NCBI GenBank assembly: GCA_027295435.1
Contig: JAPUKX010000072.1
Location: 1 to 29,927 of the forward strand
DNA: 29,927 nt
Origin: Planctomycetota bacterium
GTDB taxonomy: Bacteria > Planctomycetota > Phycisphaerae > Phycisphaerales > SM1A02
Direction of reading: 5' to 3'
Below the pieces are notes generated by a model. The model was given only the letters and a program-made list of their open reading frames with translations, did not search any database and was not told the DNA's origin. Positions 1 through 26,984 of the stretch are shown one piece after another; position 1 is the first letter of the stretch; each line of letters starts with the position of its first letter. Made by a program: the position numbers and the translations under genes.

Positions 1-61
1 ACCCGCTGGCCAGGTCGCGCAGCTTGCTGGTGAACGTTGCGCCGTGTTCGGCTGTCGCCAT
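1..61 (-). CDS. 5' end of an unknown gene running off the window edge (MATAEHGATFTSKLRDLASG...)
   Basis: ATG at 61-59, preceded on the minus strand by AAGAGAGGTGTACC (SD-like GAGAGG). The frame is open to position 1. Only 20 codons are visible. Confidence 0.45.
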   Translation of the reverse strand, partial: MATAEHGATFTSKLRDLASG

Positions 62-171
62 GGTACACCTCTCTTGTCGGGCCGGCCAGGCCCGCCGGCG
101 GAGGTGCAACAACGCCAGCAAGGCCCGCCCGCTCGCCCGGCCGTCGCCAGGCTCACCCGTTCCGTTCAATT

Positions 172-755
172 CTACTCGACGTGACGCCGCGACTTCACGC
201 GGCACAACTGTACGATCGCCGCCCGGATCGGGTCGTCCAGCTCCGGCCAAGCTTCGATTATCGCTCGAAGATCGGCGTCGGCGCGCATGTGGCGCGCATG
301 CGACTCAACGGGCGCGCCAGCGCAAGTCGTTTTGTGCTCGTCTGTTAGATGCTCTTTCGGGGTCGTTATTTGCCGGATTTTGAGTCCGGCGCGTCTGCCA
401 ATTCCGCCACTCCGGCGCTTTGCAATCACAGTTTTAGCATCGCCACGGCCGATGTCAACGGCCACCTGCGGACATGCGCGGTCATGTTCGGCACCCTTAC
501 GCACAAGTGAGGCGCAAGGAATTTCAGCCGGGGTGCCGTCCGTGCCGGTCGCGTGCTGTTCGTCAGCATCGTCGGCAGCGTCTCGAGCGCTGACCGGTCC
601 TGGTCTCGCAGGGTGTTCGAGTAGAGGTCCATCGTCAGCGTGATCGTGCTGTGCCGTGCGAGGCTCTGCGCCGCCTTAGGGTGGACGCCGGCCCGTGACA
701 AGTTGCGGATGAAGGTGTGCCGCAACTCCTCGCGGAAATCTGCACACTTGCCCAT
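172..755 (-). pseudogene. Tyrosine recombinase (integrase) C-terminal fragment, 5'-truncated and frameshifted
   Basis: ORF 755-426 reads ADFREELRHTFIRNLSRAGVHPKAAQSLARHSTITLTMDLYS, matching box II (xxLRHT, LARHS, catalytic Tyr in MDLYS). The first His of HxxR is lost (FREELR) and there is an in-frame stop at 803-801. The ATGTDG tail (552-535) lies in another frame, which stays open to TAG at 174-172, implying a frameshift near 553-575. Confidence 0.8.
373..416 (-). mobile_element. att-site-like 5' half of tRNA-Leu(CAA)
   Basis: Minus strand reads GCCGGAG TG GCGGAATTGGCAGACGC G CCGGA CTCAAAA TCCGG: acceptor 5' strand, D arm and a complete anticodon arm (CAA). No variable arm, T arm or acceptor 3' strand follows. 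It lies directly downstream of the integrase fragment. Confidence 0.8.
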
Positions 756-901
756 TGCAACGGTGAATGTGTGAGGTACACTGGTAGCGCCGTAGGTGCT
801 TCAAACTCGCACGATCGAGGCAGTTGTCGGGGCCACGGATTCGGCCAGCAAGCACCTCAGCACCACCGTGCGGCCTCTTTGGTGAGGCGGAGGACCAGGA
901 T

Positions 902-910
902 TGCTATAAA
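902..910 (+). promoter_or_regulatory. Possible extended -10 element (TGcTATAAA) for the phytase-like gene
   Basis: TGn-TATAAA about 46 nt upstream of the ATG at 957. Motif match only. Confidence 0.3.
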
Positions 911-956
911 TGTCGACTGTTCAAGAATCGAGCGTTACCCGAACGGTCAGTACAAA

Positions 957-2159
957 ATGGCATGCGTGAATCATTCTCCAAGGACAATCGCCGTTGCACC
1001 GGCGGCAGTCCTGATCTCCATCTGTATCAGCCATTCCGGCGTTGGACAGACGCTGAGTGTCAACTTCCGCGGCACAATGCCGCTGGGCACCACCGCGACG
1101 GACCAGTACGGGCAGAAGTTCACCGTCACCGGACTCAGCGGGCTGACGTGGGTACAAGACACGCTCTTCGTCGCCGTCATGGATAACTCCGACAAACTGG
1201 TCTTGCTCGATGTCCAGTTGGACGTGGAGGGTACGATCAGCTTCGCCGCGATCATCGGTGGTCTCACCCTCGCCGAGTCGCGCGACTTCGAGGGCATCGC
1301 ATACACCACAGTCGACCGTGACAGCGTGTTTCTTTCTGAGGAGGACACACCCGCCATTCAGGAATACAGCCACTCGGACGGCACTTTGCTCCAAACGCTC
1401 GACACACCCTCGGTGTTCTTCAACCTGCGTCCGAATTTCGGCTTCGAATCGCTTTCGCGACATCCTGCGGGCACGGAGTTGTGGACCGCGAACGAAGAAG
1501 CGCTCACGGTCGATGGGGAGCTTTCAACGCCGGTAGACGGGACGGTTGTCCGTCTATTGCGCTATACGCGCAGCGGTGAAACCGGTATTCCTGCCGAGCA
1601 GTTTGCCCACATCACGGAACCGATGCACGGCGGAAAGATTTCCGGCGGTCGTAGCGGCCTCGTCGATCTCGCCGTGTTACCGAATAGCAAGATACTTGCC
1701 CTGGAACGCTCATTTGCGTTCAGCATCCCGGATTTCTTCGAAAGCCGGCTCTATGAATTGGATTTCAGCGATGCGACCAACGTTAGCGGCTTCGTCGACG
1801 GCCTGATCGGAGAGACCTTCACGCCCGTCGCGAAGCACCTCCTTTGGTCAGGCAGCGTTGGCAATCTCGAAGGACTCGCATTGGGTCCATCACTGACTGG
1901 CGGCAACCAATCGCTGCTCGGTATTGTCGACGACGGCGACCCGCTGAGCACGAACCAACTCGTCGCTTTCGAGCTGCTGCTCTCCTGCGACCTCGACGGC
2001 GACGGATCGGTTGGCATCCTTGATCTGCTTCTTCTCCTGAGCAACTGGGGACCGTGCCCGGATCCGCCCGCTCCTTGCACGGCCGACCTGAACGGTGACA
2101 GCACCGTCGGCATCCTCGACCTGCTGGCGCTGCTGGCCAACTGGGGGCCGTGTCCGTGA
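957..2159 (+). CDS. Secreted esterase-like-activity-of-phytase family beta-propeller protein with C-terminal dockerin-like tail
   Basis: Motifs GLSGLTW, DFEGIA, NFGFESLS, LWTANEEAL, LALERSF, NLEGLALGP. A hydrophobic N-terminus follows the ATG at 957 (the ORF track start at 717 overlaps the integrase relic). Tail 1986-2156: DLDGDGSVGILDLL...WG twice. Confidence 0.8.
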   Translation: MACVNHSPRTIAVAPAAVLISICISHSGVGQTLSVNFRGTMPLGTTATDQYGQKFTVTGLSGLTWVQDTLFVAVMDNSDKLVLLDVQLDVEGTISFAAIIGGLTLAESRDFEGIAYTTVDRDSVFLSEEDTPAIQEYSHSDGTLLQTLDTPSVFFNLRPNFGFESLSRHPAGTELWTANEEALTVDGELSTPVDGTVVRLLRYTRSGETGIPAEQFAHITEPMHGGKISGGRSGLVDLAVLPNSKILALERSFAFSIPDFFESRLYELDFSDATNVSGFVDGLIGETFTPVAKHLLWSGSVGNLEGLALGPSLTGGNQSLLGIVDDGDPLSTNQLVAFELLLSCDLDGDGSVGILDLLLLLSNWGPCPDPPAPCTADLNGDSTVGILDLLALLANWGPCP

Positions 2160-2317
2160 CCTGATCGCGATTCCAACTACAGCCCCGAACGTCTGTGACT
2201 GGAAGCAAGGTTTCAGACGATCCTTGAGGTTCAGTTCGAGATCGACTCGGCTCGCACAAAACACCTGTTCCAGCACAGCTCTCCGTAACGGATTCCGTTC
2301 AAGAAGGGACAGAACAA

Positions 2318-3019
2318 ATGAAAAGGCTCGCACCAATGTTGACGGTCACAATCGCCGGGCTTGCGCTCGCGGCGATTCCCACGACCACTCTGGCGGACCA
2401 CATTGCCGGGCATGACAATTGCGATCCGACCTTTCCGGTGCCGATTCCAGGTGAGGAGCACTTTACTGGCGGCGTCCTGTTTGTCACAGCGATCGGCCCC
2501 CTCGAGGACGACATCATCACGAACACATCCTTTGATATCACCTATGTGTCGGACGGTGCCACACCGGCGGATGAGATCCAGTTGCACGGCACCGTTCAGG
2601 TGGACAAGGGCTTCGCCGAGTTCATCGTCACCGGGGAGGATCTCGGTTTCGGCAGTGGACCCGGAACGTTCAAGGGCACGTTCTCCACCGATGCCCTCAA
2701 CGGGGTTGTGTGGCCGAGCCCCCTGTTCCCCCCTCATTCGACCGTTGATTTGCAGATTGATGCCGTCAACGGCGGCATCGGAGGATATGCCTACTTCGTC
2801 GATTCGTTCATCAACTTTGATGTCATTCCGGCGCCGCCTTGCGCACCCCCGTGCCCGGCCGACCTCGATGGCGATGGCATCGTCGGGATTCTCGACCTGC
2901 TTGCGCTGCTTGCCGCTTGGGCCACCGACCCCGGTGGACCGCCCGACTTCGACGGCGACGGCACCGTTGGCATCCTCGACCTGCTCACGCTGCTAGCCAA
3001 CTGGGGATCGTGCCCGTAA
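2318..3019 (+). CDS. Secreted protein, unrecognised beta-rich domain plus dockerin-like tail
   Basis: Signal-peptide-like start MKRLAPMLTVTIAGLALAAIPTTTLA. Tail 2852-3016: CPADLDGDGIVGILDLL...DFDGDGTVGILDLLTLLANWGSCP. Confidence 0.8.
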   Translation: MKRLAPMLTVTIAGLALAAIPTTTLADHIAGHDNCDPTFPVPIPGEEHFTGGVLFVTAIGPLEDDIITNTSFDITYVSDGATPADEIQLHGTVQVDKGFAEFIVTGEDLGFGSGPGTFKGTFSTDALNGVVWPSPLFPPHSTVDLQIDAVNGGIGGYAYFVDSFINFDVIPAPPCAPPCPADLDGDGIVGILDLLALLAAWATDPGGPPDFDGDGTVGILDLLTLLANWGSCP

Positions 3020-3027
3020 CGATGCTT

Positions 3028-3065
3028 GGACGGAATAGGACGGAATAGCGGACGAAAGGACGGGA
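3028..3065 (+). repeat. Short tandem array GGACGGAATA x2 plus two degenerate GGACG units
   Basis: GGACGGAATA GGACGGAATA GC GGACGAAA GGACGGGA, starting 8 nt after the stop at 3019. Confidence 0.75.
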
Positions 3066-3077
3066 GTCTCTTATTCT

Positions 3078-3140
3078 TGTCCGGTTCGACCTGAGTCCTG
3101 CTCTGCCGACCTCAACTGCGACGGGGAGGTCAGCGCGTAG
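3078..3140 (+). pseudogene. Orphan fragment of a dockerin-like tail (CPVRPESCSADLNCDGEVSA*)
   Basis: The intergenic translation resembles CPDPPAPCTADLNGDSTVG and CPPPPAPCSADLDGDGSVG in the neighbouring tails. It ends in TAG at 3138-3140 and has no associated gene body. Confidence 0.6.
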
Positions 3141-3254
3141 CCAGGTGTCGCGATGATGGCAGCAGGCGGCGGACACCGCCGAGAAATCCGGCCGGGTCAA
3201 TCTGGGCAAGGCTGCGCCGGCGCCTTCATCGGTAAGTTGTTTTCCATTTTCTAC

Positions 3255-3284
3255 TTGCGATACGTTGCAACCGCGTGTTATTCT
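3255..3284 (+). promoter_or_regulatory. Possible sigma70-type promoter for the FG-GAP protein
   Basis: TTGCGA-N18-TATTCT with TG at the extended -10 position, in a locally AT-rich patch about 117 nt upstream of the ATG at 3402. Confidence 0.35.
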
Positions 3285-3401
3285 AAGACATATAGTACCT
3301 GCAGACGGCAGGCCGTGGTTGGAGCCGCCGGTCACTACACGCCAACGATGGACGTGCTCTTGCTTTACCGCCATTACTTCACTCAGGTAGGAAGAAGAAA
3401 G

Positions 3402-5126
3402 ATGTTTCGTCGCCACTCCTCTATATCATCCCGCTTGGTCCTTACTGGGGCGATGACATCGCTTCTGTCTGCGGGCACCCACGCTCAGCAGTTCATCGAG
3501 GAGTCGGCCAGCCGGTTCCCCTCGCCGAACCCCACCGACTACACCAACCAGCTTACGATCGGTGATATAGACGCCGACGGCGATCTGGACCTCATCTTCG
3601 CCAACGGCGCCGGCTTCTCATCGCCGGGCGCCGCCCAACCTCAGCGCGTCTACATCAACAATGGGTCCGGCGTGTTCACCGATGAGTCGGCGGCGCGGCT
3701 CGGCTTTTCCGGCTGGTGTCGCGGCGTCGAGCTGGGCGACATCGACGACGACGGCGATCTGGACCTGATCTTCGCCCAGGATTTCAACAAGCTGCCCCAC
3801 CTTTTCGCCAACGACGGCAACGGCTTCTTCACCGACGTCACCGCTGCGCAACTACCCAATATCACCCTCAGCAGCTCCCGCGCCCAGTTCGGCGATGTTG
3901 ACAACGACGGCGATCTTGACATCTACATCACCAGCGGGTCCACGAATCGCTTCGGCTGCGGCCAGTACCGCTTGTACCTCAACGACGGCAGCGGCTTCTT
4001 CACCGACGTGACGGCTACCCACCTTCCGATCGGGGCCGTCTGCAGCAACATGGACTGCATCTTCGGTGATATCGACGGCGACTTCGACCTTGATGTCAAG
4101 ACCGCCAGCACCGGCAGCAACAGCAGCCGCCTTTACCGAAACGACGGGACCGGCGTGTTTTCCCTCGTTACCACTATTCCGGGCGATAGCTCCTGCTATT
4201 CCTATGACTTCGGCGACATGGATGGAGACGGCGATCTGGATCTCATCGGCATCAATGCGGGCACCGGCTCCACCGAACTCCTGCTGCGCAACGACGGCAC
4301 CGGAAGCTTCACCAACGTCAGCGGGCAAATCTCGCCCAACACCAGCCTGGACGACAACGACAGCAAGTTCTTCGACTACGACAATGATGGAGATCTGGAT
4401 CTCATCATCGCCCGACTCGGCTCCGGCGGCGAACGAATCTACAACAACGATGGCCATGGCAATTTCACCCAGGTCGCCGGCGTGATCCAGATCATCAGCG
4501 ACTCTTCCCTCGACCTCATGGTCGCTGATCTCACCAACGATGGAAGGCTGGACATTGTGACCGCGCAAGGCGAATCCGGGAACTTCCAGAACCGTATCTA
4601 CATCAACAACGGGCCCGCGGACACCATCCCCCCAGCAATCCAGCGCACCGAGCAGGCGCCCGACACCGCCGACACCAAAGGGCCCTACGTCATTCGCACA
4701 GTGATCTACGACAGTGTCACGTCCGATCGCGGGCCGTTCCTCGATGACGTCACGCTCAACTACGTGATTGCGATCCCAGCCGGCCTGGGCGGCGTGCAGC
4801 AGGTGCCGATGAAGTGGGCCGGCAACTCGCTGTGGCGCGGTGAAATCCCCGGCCAGCCGTCCGGCAGCCTCGTTGAGTATTATGTCACCGCGACCGACTT
4901 CGCCGGCAACTCCAAGACCGGCCCCATCCTGACGTTCACCGTCACCTGTAGTGGCACCGTCGGCGACATCGATTGCAACGGCATCGTTAACATCTTCGAT
5001 CTGTTGGCGCTGATTGCCGCATGGGGTCCGTGTCCGCCTCCGCCGGCGCCCTGCTCCGCCGATCTCGACGGTGACGGCTCCGTCGGGATCCTCGACCTGC
5101 TCACACTCCTGGCGAACTGGGGATGA
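3402..5126 (+). CDS. Secreted FG-GAP/VCBS repeat protein with Ig-like domain and dockerin-like tail
   Basis: Seven GDxDxDGDLD-type repeats, each followed by a (L/I)xxNxGxGxF-like motif in most cases. Signal-like N-terminus from ATG 3402 with a purine-rich upstream region. Ig-like segment (VPMKW...VEYYVTATD) and tail 4962-5123. Confidence 0.85.
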   Translation: MFRRHSSISSRLVLTGAMTSLLSAGTHAQQFIEESASRFPSPNPTDYTNQLTIGDIDADGDLDLIFANGAGFSSPGAAQPQRVYINNGSGVFTDESAARLGFSGWCRGVELGDIDDDGDLDLIFAQDFNKLPHLFANDGNGFFTDVTAAQLPNITLSSSRAQFGDVDNDGDLDIYITSGSTNRFGCGQYRLYLNDGSGFFTDVTATHLPIGAVCSNMDCIFGDIDGDFDLDVKTASTGSNSSRLYRNDGTGVFSLVTTIPGDSSCYSYDFGDMDGDGDLDLIGINAGTGSTELLLRNDGTGSFTNVSGQISPNTSLDDNDSKFFDYDNDGDLDLIIARLGSGGERIYNNDGHGNFTQVAGVIQIISDSSLDLMVADLTNDGRLDIVTAQGESGNFQNRIYINNGPADTIPPAIQRTEQAPDTADTKGPYVIRTVIYDSVTSDRGPFLDDVTLNYVIAIPAGLGGVQQVPMKWAGNSLWRGEIPGQPSGSLVEYYVTATDFAGNSKTGPILTFTVTCSGTVGDIDCNGIVNIFDLLALIAAWGPCPPPPAPCSADLDGDGSVGILDLLTLLANWG

Positions 5127-10069: not shown

Positions 10070-11233
10070 ATGCTCTACATCCTGCTCCAGATGACCAGCG
10101 AGTGGCTCGACGAACGGGGCCTTTATTCGCTGCTACAGGTCTTGTACTACATCGAATTCCGAGCGTTCGTAGCGGCGCTGTTGAGCTTTGGACTGGTGCT
10201 GGTCTTCGGCCGGGGGGTCATTCGCTGGCTGATTCGACAGAAGATCGGCGACTCACCGGAGTTCTACCATGCCGACCTGAATGAGTTGATGGCCAGCAAG
10301 ACGGCCACCCCCACCATGGGGGGGATTCTCATCGTCGGCGCGACACTCCTGACCATGCTCCTGCTGGCGGACCTGCGCAACCGCTACGTGATCATCGCGT
10401 TCTTCGTGCTGGGTTGGCTGGCGTTGCTTGGAGGCGCCGACGATTGGCTCAAGCTGACCTCGGCCCGCCGAGCACCGGGCTCGCGCGAAGGTCTCCATCC
10501 GTGGGAAAAACTGTTGTTTCAACTGGGTATCGGCGCGGTGGCGGGCTTATTTCTGTTTCGCCATGGCATCGGCGACGAGACGACGCGGGTGCTGACGCTG
10601 CCACTTCAACGCACGTATCGGCCGGGCACCATGGAGTTGGAGCAAGGCGTGCTGGTGCTGGGAGGATTTGCCTTCGTGCTCATCTCGATGCTGCTCATTG
10701 CCGGCACATCCAACGCTGTCAATCTCACCGATGGCATGGACGGTCTGGCGGCGGGCACCCTGGTGGTCGCCTCGTTTGCCTTGATGGTCCTCTGCTTCAT
10801 CGCAGGGAGCGTAGAGACGGCGAAGTTCCTCAACTTCCCTCATATCGACGGGGCGGCGGAGTTGATGATCGTCACCGGTGCGATGGCGGGCGGGTGTCTC
10901 GGGTTCCTGTGGTTCAACTGCGCGCCGGCCCAGGTGTTCATGGGCGACACCGGGGCGCTGCCGTTGGGCGGCCTGATGGCTTACATCGCCGTGGCCATTC
11001 GTCAGGAGATTCTGCTACTGATCATCGGCGGCGTGTTCTTCATGGAAATGGCCAGCGTGGTCATCCAGGTAGCCTACTTCAAGTCGACGAAAGGTCAGCG
11101 AGTTTTCCGCTGCTCACCGGTCCATCATCATTTCCATCTGGGCGGATGGTCCGAACAGCAGGTGGTCACACGGTTCTGGGTGTTGGCGGTCGTGTTCGCC
11201 ATGATCGCGCTGGTGTCGATCAAGCTCAGATGA
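10070..11233 (+). CDS. mraY: Phospho-MurNAc-pentapeptide translocase
   Basis: TPTMGG, GGADDWLK, NAVNLTDGMDGLA, FNCAPAQVFMGDTG, PVHHHFHLGGWSE, and about ten hydrophobic segments. Confidence 0.97.
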   Translation: MLYILLQMTSEWLDERGLYSLLQVLYYIEFRAFVAALLSFGLVLVFGRGVIRWLIRQKIGDSPEFYHADLNELMASKTATPTMGGILIVGATLLTMLLLADLRNRYVIIAFFVLGWLALLGGADDWLKLTSARRAPGSREGLHPWEKLLFQLGIGAVAGLFLFRHGIGDETTRVLTLPLQRTYRPGTMELEQGVLVLGGFAFVLISMLLIAGTSNAVNLTDGMDGLAAGTLVVASFALMVLCFIAGSVETAKFLNFPHIDGAAELMIVTGAMAGGCLGFLWFNCAPAQVFMGDTGALPLGGLMAYIAVAIRQEILLLIIGGVFFMEMASVVIQVAYFKSTKGQRVFRCSPVHHHFHLGGWSEQQVVTRFWVLAVVFAMIALVSIKLR

Positions 11234-24824: not shown

Positions 24825-26984
24825 CTACCCCCAGTTGGCCAGCAAGGCAAGCAGGTCGAGGATGCCGACGTTCTCGTCCCCATCGAGATCGGCGGGACAA
24901 GGAGCGGGCGGATCGGGACACGGACCCCACGCCGCCAGCAGCGCCAGCAGATCAAGGATGCCGACCGTGCCGTCGCCATCGAGGTCGCCGGGGATCGTCT
25001 GCCCGCATTCGATGACCGCGACCTGCAGATCGTCCATAGCGGCTTCCACAATGGAGCCGTCGCCTTCGTCGGACGCGATGAACCGCAAGCGCACCTGCGC
25101 GGTCGGCGCAACGAAGTCGGCGACGCTGAACTGATGGAAGATCCACCCGCCGGTCGTATCCGGGCCGCCCGGACCGACCGTTTCCACATTGGTCCAGGTT
25201 GATCCGTTGTTGTTGGAGATGTCCACGACGAAAACGTCGGCGTTGGGCGAAGCCCCGGTATCGTTTGAGTACCACCGCCAATAGCTGATCTCGGCATTGG
25301 GGGCGCCTAAAAGATCAATGACCGGCGAGGTCAGCGTGGTCTGGCCGCTATCGACATCGTTCGCACCGATCGGGCCGCCGGGCGACCCCTGGCCGGTGAC
25401 GAAGCACATCGTTGCGGGATCGGGGGTGTGGTCGTTGCCAGGCTGAGCAGGAGTGCCGTTGGGATCGACGCGCTCCCAGATGCCGGTCGTCGCGTCGTCA
25501 GCCGGGGCGCCGACGACCCAGCCGGTGTCGGCCTCAAAGTCGTCTTCCATAACGATCTTCAAGTCGAAGCCGGAGAGGGTTTCGAACGTCGTGCTGGGAG
25601 CATCGAGCGGGTCTTTGACGCTGATCCCGGAGGTGGTCTGCGCACTGAGGTAATAGGACACGTTCTGCCCGCAAGGGATGGACGGGAAGACCACGTCATA
25701 GAGGCTCTCCGATATCTGCGCCAGGGGCACGTCCACGAAGCCGGCCCCTGCGTCGTAATGCAGCAGAGGCGAATCGGGATCGAGGGCGCCGCCGTCCTGG
25801 CCGACGATTTCAACCGCAAACGAGTCGCCATCGGGGTTGATCAGATCGGGTCGACCTTGGGGATAGCTAAAGACCAACAGCTGAGGCCCAACGTCGATTA
25901 TGTAGAGGCCCGTGGACAGATCGGAAACCACCACCCGGTCGGGGCCCAAGAACGGATAGACGCCCCAGGCCCCGTTGAAGCCGATCGGCGGTCCCGCAAA
26001 GGTATCATAGCTGGCGACGAATTCGAGCAAACCGGTGGCGGGGTCGATGTCGAAGACCTGCAGCCCCGCCTGGTACCAGGCGTTGTACAGGCGATAGCCG
26101 TCAATCACCTGATTGTGAACGCTAAACGCCTGTTTGCCAGGAAGGGCAAGCGAGTCAGTCAGTTCTAGGGTCACGAAGGTGCCCTGGTCGGTGATGCGAT
26201 ACACTTTGATCCCCCCGCCTTCGCGCTCCTCTCCGGTGACGACATAATCGCCATTCGCGGTCGGCCAGCAGGAGTGAGTGTTGTTGCCGCCGTCGGGCGT
26301 ACTGCCGAGGAAGGTGGGCATCTGCGTGGCCACATTGGTGACGTCATAGATCCACAGCCCGCTGTCCCACGCACAGGCATAGAGCCGGCCGTCACGCACC
26401 ACCATGTCGTGCACGAACGAACTACCGACGTTTTCGAGAATCCATTTCGGCGTAGTGATGGGCCCGGGAGGCGGGTTATCCGGATCAAGCCCCGTCAGAT
26501 CAACGATACCCACTCGCGTTGTTCCGCTGTCGGCGAAGTACAGAAAACCCGCGTTGTAGAAGACGTTATGGATGGCGTTGAACCCGGAGATGCTGACATC
26601 GATCAGCGCAATGGGGTCAAGAGGATTGCGAACATCAACGATGTGGACAGCAGCTTCGTTATTGCTTCCCAACCCAATGAACAGAAGGTCATCGGCGACC
26701 TTGACGTCCTGGGCCGAAGCGGAGCCGTTGGGAGGAGGCAACAGGTATTCCACAGCCTGAGGGTTGGTTGGATCGCTGATATCGACGATGTGAACGCCAG
26801 CATGGCCGAAGTGTCCAATGTAGGCGTAGTTTCCGTCTCCCCACACGTCGCCATAGGAGCCGGCGAACCCGTTCCAATGCCCAACCAGCGTGGCATCGAT
26901 CGGATCGTCCTGGGCCGGAGCCTGACCGACAAACAGGATCAGACAAACCAGAGGCCACCGCCTCCATCGCCGAGCGTTATTCAC
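24825..26984 (-). CDS. Secreted choice-of-anchor B / LVIVD-repeat protein with Ig-like and jelly-roll domains and a dockerin-like tail
   Basis: GTG at 26984 with SD GGAGGG, then a signal-like peptide. YGDVWG, IVDISDP, FVHD, NTHSCW, SVHN, GAWGVYPF. Tail 24989-24828. The track start at 27110 adds 42 non-signal residues. Confidence 0.85.
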   Translation of the reverse strand: MNNARRWRRWPLVCLILFVGQAPAQDDPIDATLVGHWNGFAGSYGDVWGDGNYAYIGHFGHAGVHIVDISDPTNPQAVEYLLPPPNGSASAQDVKVADDLLFIGLGSNNEAAVHIVDVRNPLDPIALIDVSISGFNAIHNVFYNAGFLYFADSGTTRVGIVDLTGLDPDNPPPGPITTPKWILENVGSSFVHDMVVRDGRLYACAWDSGLWIYDVTNVATQMPTFLGSTPDGGNNTHSCWPTANGDYVVTGEEREGGGIKVYRITDQGTFVTLELTDSLALPGKQAFSVHNQVIDGYRLYNAWYQAGLQVFDIDPATGLLEFVASYDTFAGPPIGFNGAWGVYPFLGPDRVVVSDLSTGLYIIDVGPQLLVFSYPQGRPDLINPDGDSFAVEIVGQDGGALDPDSPLLHYDAGAGFVDVPLAQISESLYDVVFPSIPCGQNVSYYLSAQTTSGISVKDPLDAPSTTFETLSGFDLKIVMEDDFEADTGWVVGAPADDATTGIWERVDPNGTPAQPGNDHTPDPATMCFVTGQGSPGGPIGANDVDSGQTTLTSPVIDLLGAPNAEISYWRWYSNDTGASPNADVFVVDISNNNGSTWTNVETVGPGGPDTTGGWIFHQFSVADFVAPTAQVRLRFIASDEGDGSIVEAAMDDLQVAVIECGQTIPGDLDGDGTVGILDLLALLAAWGPCPDPPAPCPADLDGDENVGILDLLALLANWG

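Follow-up and report, generated by a model that had tools for sequence, protein, structure and literature searches.

The window analysed here is a whole contig of 29,927 nt from a MAG of 2.24 Mb (364 contigs, 86% complete). On its minus strand, from 755 to 172, an integrase remnant, an ATGTDG tail, half of a tRNA-Leu(CAA) gene, a linker and a short module with the motif AWPxLP stand in a row (Table 1). The minus-strand frame of 582-172 reads ...DDADEQHATGTDG ...KRRSGGIGRRAGLKIR... DADLRAIIEAWPELDDPIRAAIVQLCR (279-199) ...HVE and then ends in a TAG (174-172), SGGIGRRAGLKIR being what the first 44 nt of the tRNA gene (window 416-373) encode when read in sense. The preliminary description had placed ATGTDG at 552-535, the module at 279-199 and the stop at 174-172, had noticed that no stop interrupts the tRNA half, and had proposed that a frameshift near 553-575 breaks a fusion between integrase and module. 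All of this layout checks: the stop-free frame extends in full over 167 codons (approximately 672-175), from the tail through the tRNA half into the module, and the frameshift is real. The damage had been understated, since the integrase also lacks its N-terminal two thirds. The open frame by itself is weak evidence that does not go beyond chance, as 17% of all 137-codon stretches of the window (six frames, 62.8% GC) are free of stops; its significance comes only from the comparative data.

Table 1. Features at the end of the window (positions are those of the window).
Feature	Position	Strand	Remarks
Putative next gene of the younger island, start ATG 61-59, running off the contig end	1..61	-	20 codons only
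Divergent AWPxLP module, C-terminal; core 199-279, stop TAG 172-174	172..291	-	Family matches
Putative island arm: linker from att to module, 81 nt, open in frame	292..372	-	Non-conserved
First 44 nt of tRNA-Leu(CAA), acceptor strand to end of anticodon stem; att core	373..416	-	Broken after g373
Integrase tail, ATGTDG (552-535) plus linker	417..552	-	In frame with tRNA half and module (translation)
Frameshift zone between catalytic frame and tail frame	553..575	-	ETLP ends at 573 (frame of ORF 426-755); ATGTDG starts at 552
Integrase 3' remnant, lambda-type tyrosine (box II: ...ELRHTF...ARHS...LYSN...ALETLP)	546..755	-	70 codons, within ORF 426-755
Extra DNA from the tRNA 5' end to a conserved host gene, 2.6 kb	418..3056	.	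Synteny with G003 (~280 nt there)

The ORF at 426-755 matches positions 335-403 of the 496 positions of an integrase family profile (64 bits, E 4e-20), and positions 1-334 of this profile have no match within window 1-3000. The match of the remnant to Pfam PF00589 is weak (E 1.3e-3), its HxxR motif no longer has the first His, and no complete ORF covers N-terminal, core-binding and catalytic domains. Across the tails of the aligned integrase family, ATGT is conserved as a consensus motif. The tRNA half scores 24.7 bits against Rfam, below the gathering score of 29, and ARAGORN called no tRNA there, as a complete cloverleaf is absent. The window module matches the module profile A1 with 59-63 bits, being itself a row of A1, and departs from the consensus with LDD for LPx and VQLCR for VAMVK. 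Its closest copies are near-identical relics in the related genomes G001 and G003, and the module itself may be decaying. With two thirds of the integrase missing and a frameshift breaking the fusion, the window copy is a non-functional fossil that can make neither a full-length nor a truncated protein.

The AWPxLP module

Strong matches to the module share the consensus DPDLxxVVxAWPxLPxAIRAGIVAMV. A six-frame search with a single sequence found matches in 49 of 61 related genomes (E <= 1, with E values down to 4e-6), and a profile of 19 module copies retrieved 11,385 representatives of 50%-identity clusters at E <= 1e-3, including 1,133 at E <= 1e-10. The best 150 of the 11,385 matches are proteins of 34-286 aa, and in most of them the module lies at or near the C-terminus. 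The stop codon always follows 17-30 residues past the invariant Trp. All Atlas neighbours of the module are annotated as 'hypothetical protein' and come from Planctomycetota. Searches of Pfam and NCBIfam gave no family at cut-off for the window module, the tail of a fused protein or the module proteins submitted (five, or six for Pfam).

Among 82 unique modules, pairwise differences in the conserved columns amount to 0.17, 0.07 and 0.44 at codon positions 1, 2 and 3, respectively, and all synonymous codons are used for the conserved residues. This third-position bias and the free use of synonymous codons indicate selection on the module protein and not on a DNA site. Judged from these substitution patterns, the module is a real, translated protein motif.

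The named module loci belong almost exclusively to Planctomycetota (Phycisphaerales, Isosphaeraceae, Planctomycetaceae, Gemmataceae and Pirellulales), and 37 of 251 genomes in an even sample of the phylum contain a strong match. The cultured Aeoliella sp. SH292 (NZ_CP197417.1) carries a module near 2.74-2.76 Mb (L106). A tblastn search of 50,697 phage records with a module of 34 aa gave no match. Good module copies were also observed on MAG contigs labelled Myxococcaceae, Nitrospira, Chloroflexia, betaproteobacterium and Latescibacterota (L065, L101, L102, L116 and L126), which may reflect binning errors or transfer outside Planctomycetota. In the proteins P0003 (223 aa) and P0047 (286 aa), 3 or 4 tandem copies of a related motif, L..TEAWP.LP....RRAMLALEPEF, follow a putative lipoprotein-like N-terminus, indicating that the motif also occurs outside integrase tails.

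Integrase family and fused genes

In an alignment of 92 sequences (A4), the residues R223, K265, H349, R352, H375 and Y385 are invariant, and the family integrase matches PF00589 with an E value of 2.4e-18. An AF2 model computed on this 92-sequence alignment (mean pLDDT 79.7) matches lambda Int (1z1b_B, Z 16.5) over residues 1-383, with the arm-binding domain included. The R-K-H-R-H-Y set together with this predicted fold places the family among tyrosine recombinases of the lambda Int type. Residues 425-535 of the model (protein P0153), which hold the translated att core, are predicted to be disordered (pLDDT <50), and the linker between att and module, which belongs to this region, varies among relatives. 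The module is predicted to form two helices, 538-545 and 552-569 (pLDDT ~88-90), and none of the solved chains compared aligns past model residue 412.

Uninterrupted genes that join integrase and module were found in several places. In the middle of a 43-kb IMG/VR contig (L035), a single frame of 574 codons leads from a complete integrase through ATGTYDG, the tRNA-antisense peptide APVGARTRNLRFRRPE and a linker into the module. In a collection of 5.8 billion proteins, 5 of the best 120 integrase homologues are fused forms of 541-578 aa. Two of these, P0156 and P0255, are encoded on Logan contigs of 9,032 and 7,789 nt, the ends of which overlap by exactly 30 nt; in an assembly with k=31 such an overlap is typical of a circular or tandem path, and tandem copies can give it as well as circles. 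Another of the five, P0160, reads the 5' half of a tRNA in the sense direction, like the window. In L035/P0153, P0156, P0160 and P0255, a tRNA-derived peptide lies between the catalytic domain and the module. The fused ORFs thus contain the att core past the catalytic tyrosine, and the window has the same order in broken form. No myxophage was matched when a fused integrase was searched against the 50,697 phage records.

In four fused loci, the next ORF or gene starts 4 nt before the integrase stop, as an ATGA or GTGA overlap (L132 3774/3777; L133 7892/7895; L146 5343/5346; L035 3117/3120); a further fused locus, L148, lacks this overlap. Likewise, a downstream ORF starts 4 nt before the module stop in 12 of the 23 islands examined. 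The stop-start overlap in these sequences suggests that translation of the first island genes is coupled to the full-length integrase ORF, and integration would sever this coupling.

Island geometry and reading frame

In relatives with long contigs, the module and an integrase of 440-550 aa lie at opposite ends of an island on the same strand, and both ends abut the same tRNA-derived repeat. For 13 islands from 10 genomes, an att repeat of 20-59 nt was placed at both ends and the ends were joined in silico. These islands are 2.8-17 kb long, and in 13/13 the integrase frame continues into the module frame with no stop, giving joined ORFs of 491-610 codons. Five further islands from named MAGs, two of which were paired by a diverged or short repeat (BLAST), all gave one open frame (5/5). 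The locus L129, where a 34-aa stump of the module and part of an integrase are left, was excluded from the frame count as decayed. For 12 islands of the first set of 13, the stop of the integrated integrase lies 0-54 nt past the repeat; it lies 179 nt past it in the remaining one (L024) and up to ~180 nt past it in the later five. The tRNA genes called by ARAGORN at or overlapping the integrase end include those for SeC, Lys, Asp, Ala, Val and Arg.

The genome G016 contains two tandem islands at one tRNA-Asp site (contig C1, ~1,010,000-1,057,400; L027, L028 and L029). Their integrases read the same att core in different frames, EADGTRTRNHRIDS and GGRDSNPQPPDRQS, and each agrees with its own module, which speaks against a single frame having simply been inherited. 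The 18 islands do not count as phylogenetically independent cases (those of G037 and G042 are an example) and a chance value of 3^-18 overstates the significance, but the frame rule is clear despite this kinship.

The preliminary description had named short DPDLxxVVxAWPxLP proteins and ATGTDG-tailed integrases as common near the ends of planctomycete islands, and both were recovered by the family searches. Its further proposal was that the module sits at the far end of the island and is fused to the integrase only when the ends are joined. In every paired island the module indeed lies opposite the integrase, on the same strand and adjoining a tRNA-derived att; the fusion exists as uninterrupted genes in the 43-kb viral contig and in two circular-type contigs; and end joining produced one open frame in 18/18 evaluable islands, against the 1 in 3 expected by chance. 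Neither a lack of module homologues, nor a location away from att ends, nor frame agreement at chance level was observed, any of which it had regarded as fatal to the idea.

A probable series of two islands at a tRNA-Leu gene

Window positions 373-417 (45 nt) are 100% identical to the intact tRNA-Leu(CAA) genes of G001, G002 and G003, which belong to the same genus. In G003, the segment 1825-3038 of locus L142 aligns with window 3057-4270 at 94.7% identity, and L142 1501-1545 corresponds to window 373-417. This tRNA identity and the upstream synteny indicate that the tRNA half of the window is the native gene, which would have been broken after the anticodon stem by an island end (linker and module) running off the contig.

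The 2.6 kb that the window has in place of ~280 nt in G003 contain the integrase remnant, reading into the tRNA, as well as two genes that encode dockerin-like tails. By sequence comparison, this extra DNA is probably the remainder of an older island. In an element of the sense type, an integrase would be expected at that position only if a member of the family had inserted there earlier, which leads to two islands in series. The segment 172-755 would then be a fossil junction of two integrative elements of the same family, the older of which has mostly been deleted. Along the minus strand, it would consist of the last ~70 codons and the frameshifted tail of the older integrase, the 44 nt of tRNA as core, and the arm of the younger element. 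The continuity of the frame across the core would follow from both islands being of the same lineage. We infer this series model from one junction together with the synteny; in the window's own 86%-complete assembly, searches for the integrase of the younger island and for the 3' half of the tRNA-Leu gene found neither.

Window 390-3500 recurs at 99-100% identity in contigs of four independent metagenomes from marine or sediment samples, with 0-2 differences over 390-655. None of the contigs from these four studies covers 235-351, which leaves the linker from tRNA half to module uncovered, and the junction with the module arm was not independently recovered from them; the tRNA-derived loose ends at 373/374 in the metagenomes stem from many organisms. 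The uncovered interval could reflect a younger island that is polymorphic and not fixed in the population, or simply fragmented assembly.

The dockerin-like C-terminal tag, DLDGDGxVGILDLLxLLANWGPCP, is repeated and ends several secreted proteins. It was observed at window 957-2159 and 2318-3019, in copies at ~4960-5125 and ~24830-24990, and on contigs C82 and C130 of the same genome, with 80-95% nucleotide identity between loci and genomes.

Alternative explanations

Gene callers report the module almost only in short proteins, as in the best 150 of the 11,385 profile matches, and it could accordingly be the C-terminus of an independent small protein (~70-130 aa) for which the att position and the shared frame are incidental. 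An in-frame ATG or GTG is indeed present in some copies (L011 1348-1602, for instance), and the ORF starting 4 nt before the module stop in about half of the islands examined (12/23) suggests a translated frame. We nevertheless consider an independent small protein very unlikely, because the module frame agrees with the far-end integrase in all 18 islands, even where one att site is read in two frames, because upstream of att the frame of integrated copies enters unrelated host DNA of variable length (6-924 nt), and because fused genes run uninterrupted on joined-state contigs. Conservation of the stretch as DNA, for instance as arm-type integrase sites of attP, would suit an integrase with a lambda-like N-terminal arm-binding domain, since arm sites would be expected on either side of the core, at the place of the module. 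Arm sites would hardly explain why differences are so much rarer at codon position 2 than at position 3 (0.07 against 0.44), why all synonymous codons are used, or why the stop always falls within the same short distance of the Trp, and of all the readings considered this one is the least probable.

At the window itself, the local open frame could be a product of high G+C, and the pieces could be unrelated debris or a chimera formed at the contig end. The stop-free fraction of 137-codon stretches given above fits such a coincidence, and a chimera would be in keeping with the position of the feature within 760 nt of a contig end in a MAG of 364 contigs and with the lack of coverage of 235-351 by contigs in four other metagenomes. 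However, each piece matches its own family separately, and the order, strand and frame of the pieces are those of the fused genes, including the sense 5'-half type represented by P0160. The reproduction of 390-655 in contigs of four independent studies with almost no differences also speaks against a chimera, and we give chance or misassembly even less credit than the small protein. As a whole, the reading of 172-755 as a fossil junction of elements with an attP-spanning integrase gene appears highly probable.

Proposed mechanism and relation to known systems

The island geometry, the frame rule and the fused ORFs show an element family in which the integrase gene spans attP. In the joined state, either an excised circle or a tandem, it forms one ORF of ~540-610 codons encoding the catalytic domain, a disordered tail, the translated tRNA core, a linker and the two-helix module of ~30 residues. 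This ORF is broken at the core by integration, which leaves the module at the far island end, and the prophage integrase retains its whole catalytic domain and ends a few to ~60 codons into tRNA or host sequence. By analogy with the myxophage Mx8, the full-length form would be the efficient integrating enzyme and the truncated form would be less active, stabilising the prophage, and we infer for the module a role as a directionality switch. More speculatively, the AWPxLP module might be a detachable state-sensing domain across Planctomycetota, which would license integration (or bind a partner or RDF) only from the circle, and the removal of which would lock the prophage and uncouple the downstream genes, which overlap the module stop with their starts, from the integrase promoter. 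We regard this extension as possible but doubtful. If it were true, thousands of short motif-bearing 'hypothetical proteins' would be halves of split integrase genes.

In the myxophage Mx8, attP lies inside the integrase gene, and integration exchanges a tail of 112 residues for one of 13 and lowers the activity; a comparable principle has been reported for Mx9 (PMC6070905, PMC4701971, PMC4383910). Mx8 IntP/IntX resembles the planctomycete family in placing attP past the catalytic domain of a tyrosine integrase gene and in targeting a tRNA gene. The Mx8 Int tail likewise includes a translated tRNA-derived peptide, GVARSTGLEP. As in the Mx8 design, the integrated integrase of all 18 islands ends shortly past the core and its tail lies in frame at the other end. 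In contrast, no relation between the proteins was detectable by whole-protein BLASTP (E 0.76) or by hhalign of the module profile against the Mx8 tail (probability 0.4%), and the Mx8 tail contains no AWPxLP motif. The planctomycete family also differs in being very large and in having many tRNA targets, with a core that is read antisense (3' part) or in sense (5' half, as in the window). As far as sequences can tell, the design is that known from Mx8 IntP/IntX, a shared design and not a shared family, and the tail module is unrelated.

In the 'suicidal' integrases of the SSV type, which occur in archaeal viruses and plasmids, the recombination site lies in the ORF and integration leaves two inactive pseudogenes (PMC7253208). 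Here, too, the two ends of the integrated island each receive a part of the gene, but the site of the cut is well beyond the catalytic Tyr (Y385 in P0153, with the tRNA peptide near residue 480) and the catalytic domain remains whole; with a core ~40-110 residues past the catalytic Tyr, an SSV-type integrase was ruled out. In the mycobacteriophages BPs, Brujita and Charlie, immunity depends on integration, by which a split repressor gene loses an ssrA-like degradation tag (PMC9262239). These phages likewise have attP in a gene, overlapping a tRNA core, and integration takes a C-terminal piece from the encoded protein and alters how it behaves, as it would in the planctomycete elements, although it is the integrase that is split in the latter and not a repressor. 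The piece lost here is a conserved two-helix motif with variable last residues, which argues against a simple degron. With the heterobivalent integrases of the lambda type the family shares the fold of residues 1-383, over which the fused model aligns with lambda Int. Whereas lambda Int ends ~15 residues past the Tyr, the planctomycete family adds ~150-200 residues of tail, att core and module, which none of the chains compared matches in structure.

A description of the planctomycete integrase family or its module was not found in the literature searched. If our reading holds, the Mx8 trick, in which the recombination carried out by an integrase switches its own C-terminus, would be more than an oddity of two myxophages: planctomycete phages and small integrative elements of a very large family would use it as their standard, and the conserved tail motif of this family would be covered by no curated family. 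For annotation, a short orphan protein ending in AWPxLPxxIRAGIVAMV beside a tRNA gene or fragment would mark one island end and the matching integrase the other, giving precise island bounds. The family would also offer a testable model for directionality control.

Variant elements

An Xis-like HTH gene was considered as a constant follower of the module; it is present in L031, L032 and L048 but is not general, and was dropped from the design. In L031 (G037; 2187-2259 and 10312-10385) and L032 (G042), two complete tRNA-Ala copies flank the island, in place of a gene at one end and a fragment at the other. In L139 (G016), a weak module-like ORF (17.2 bits) runs antisense through a complete tRNA-Leu(CAA). 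At these three loci the element seems to bring a complete tRNA copy with it on the side of the module.
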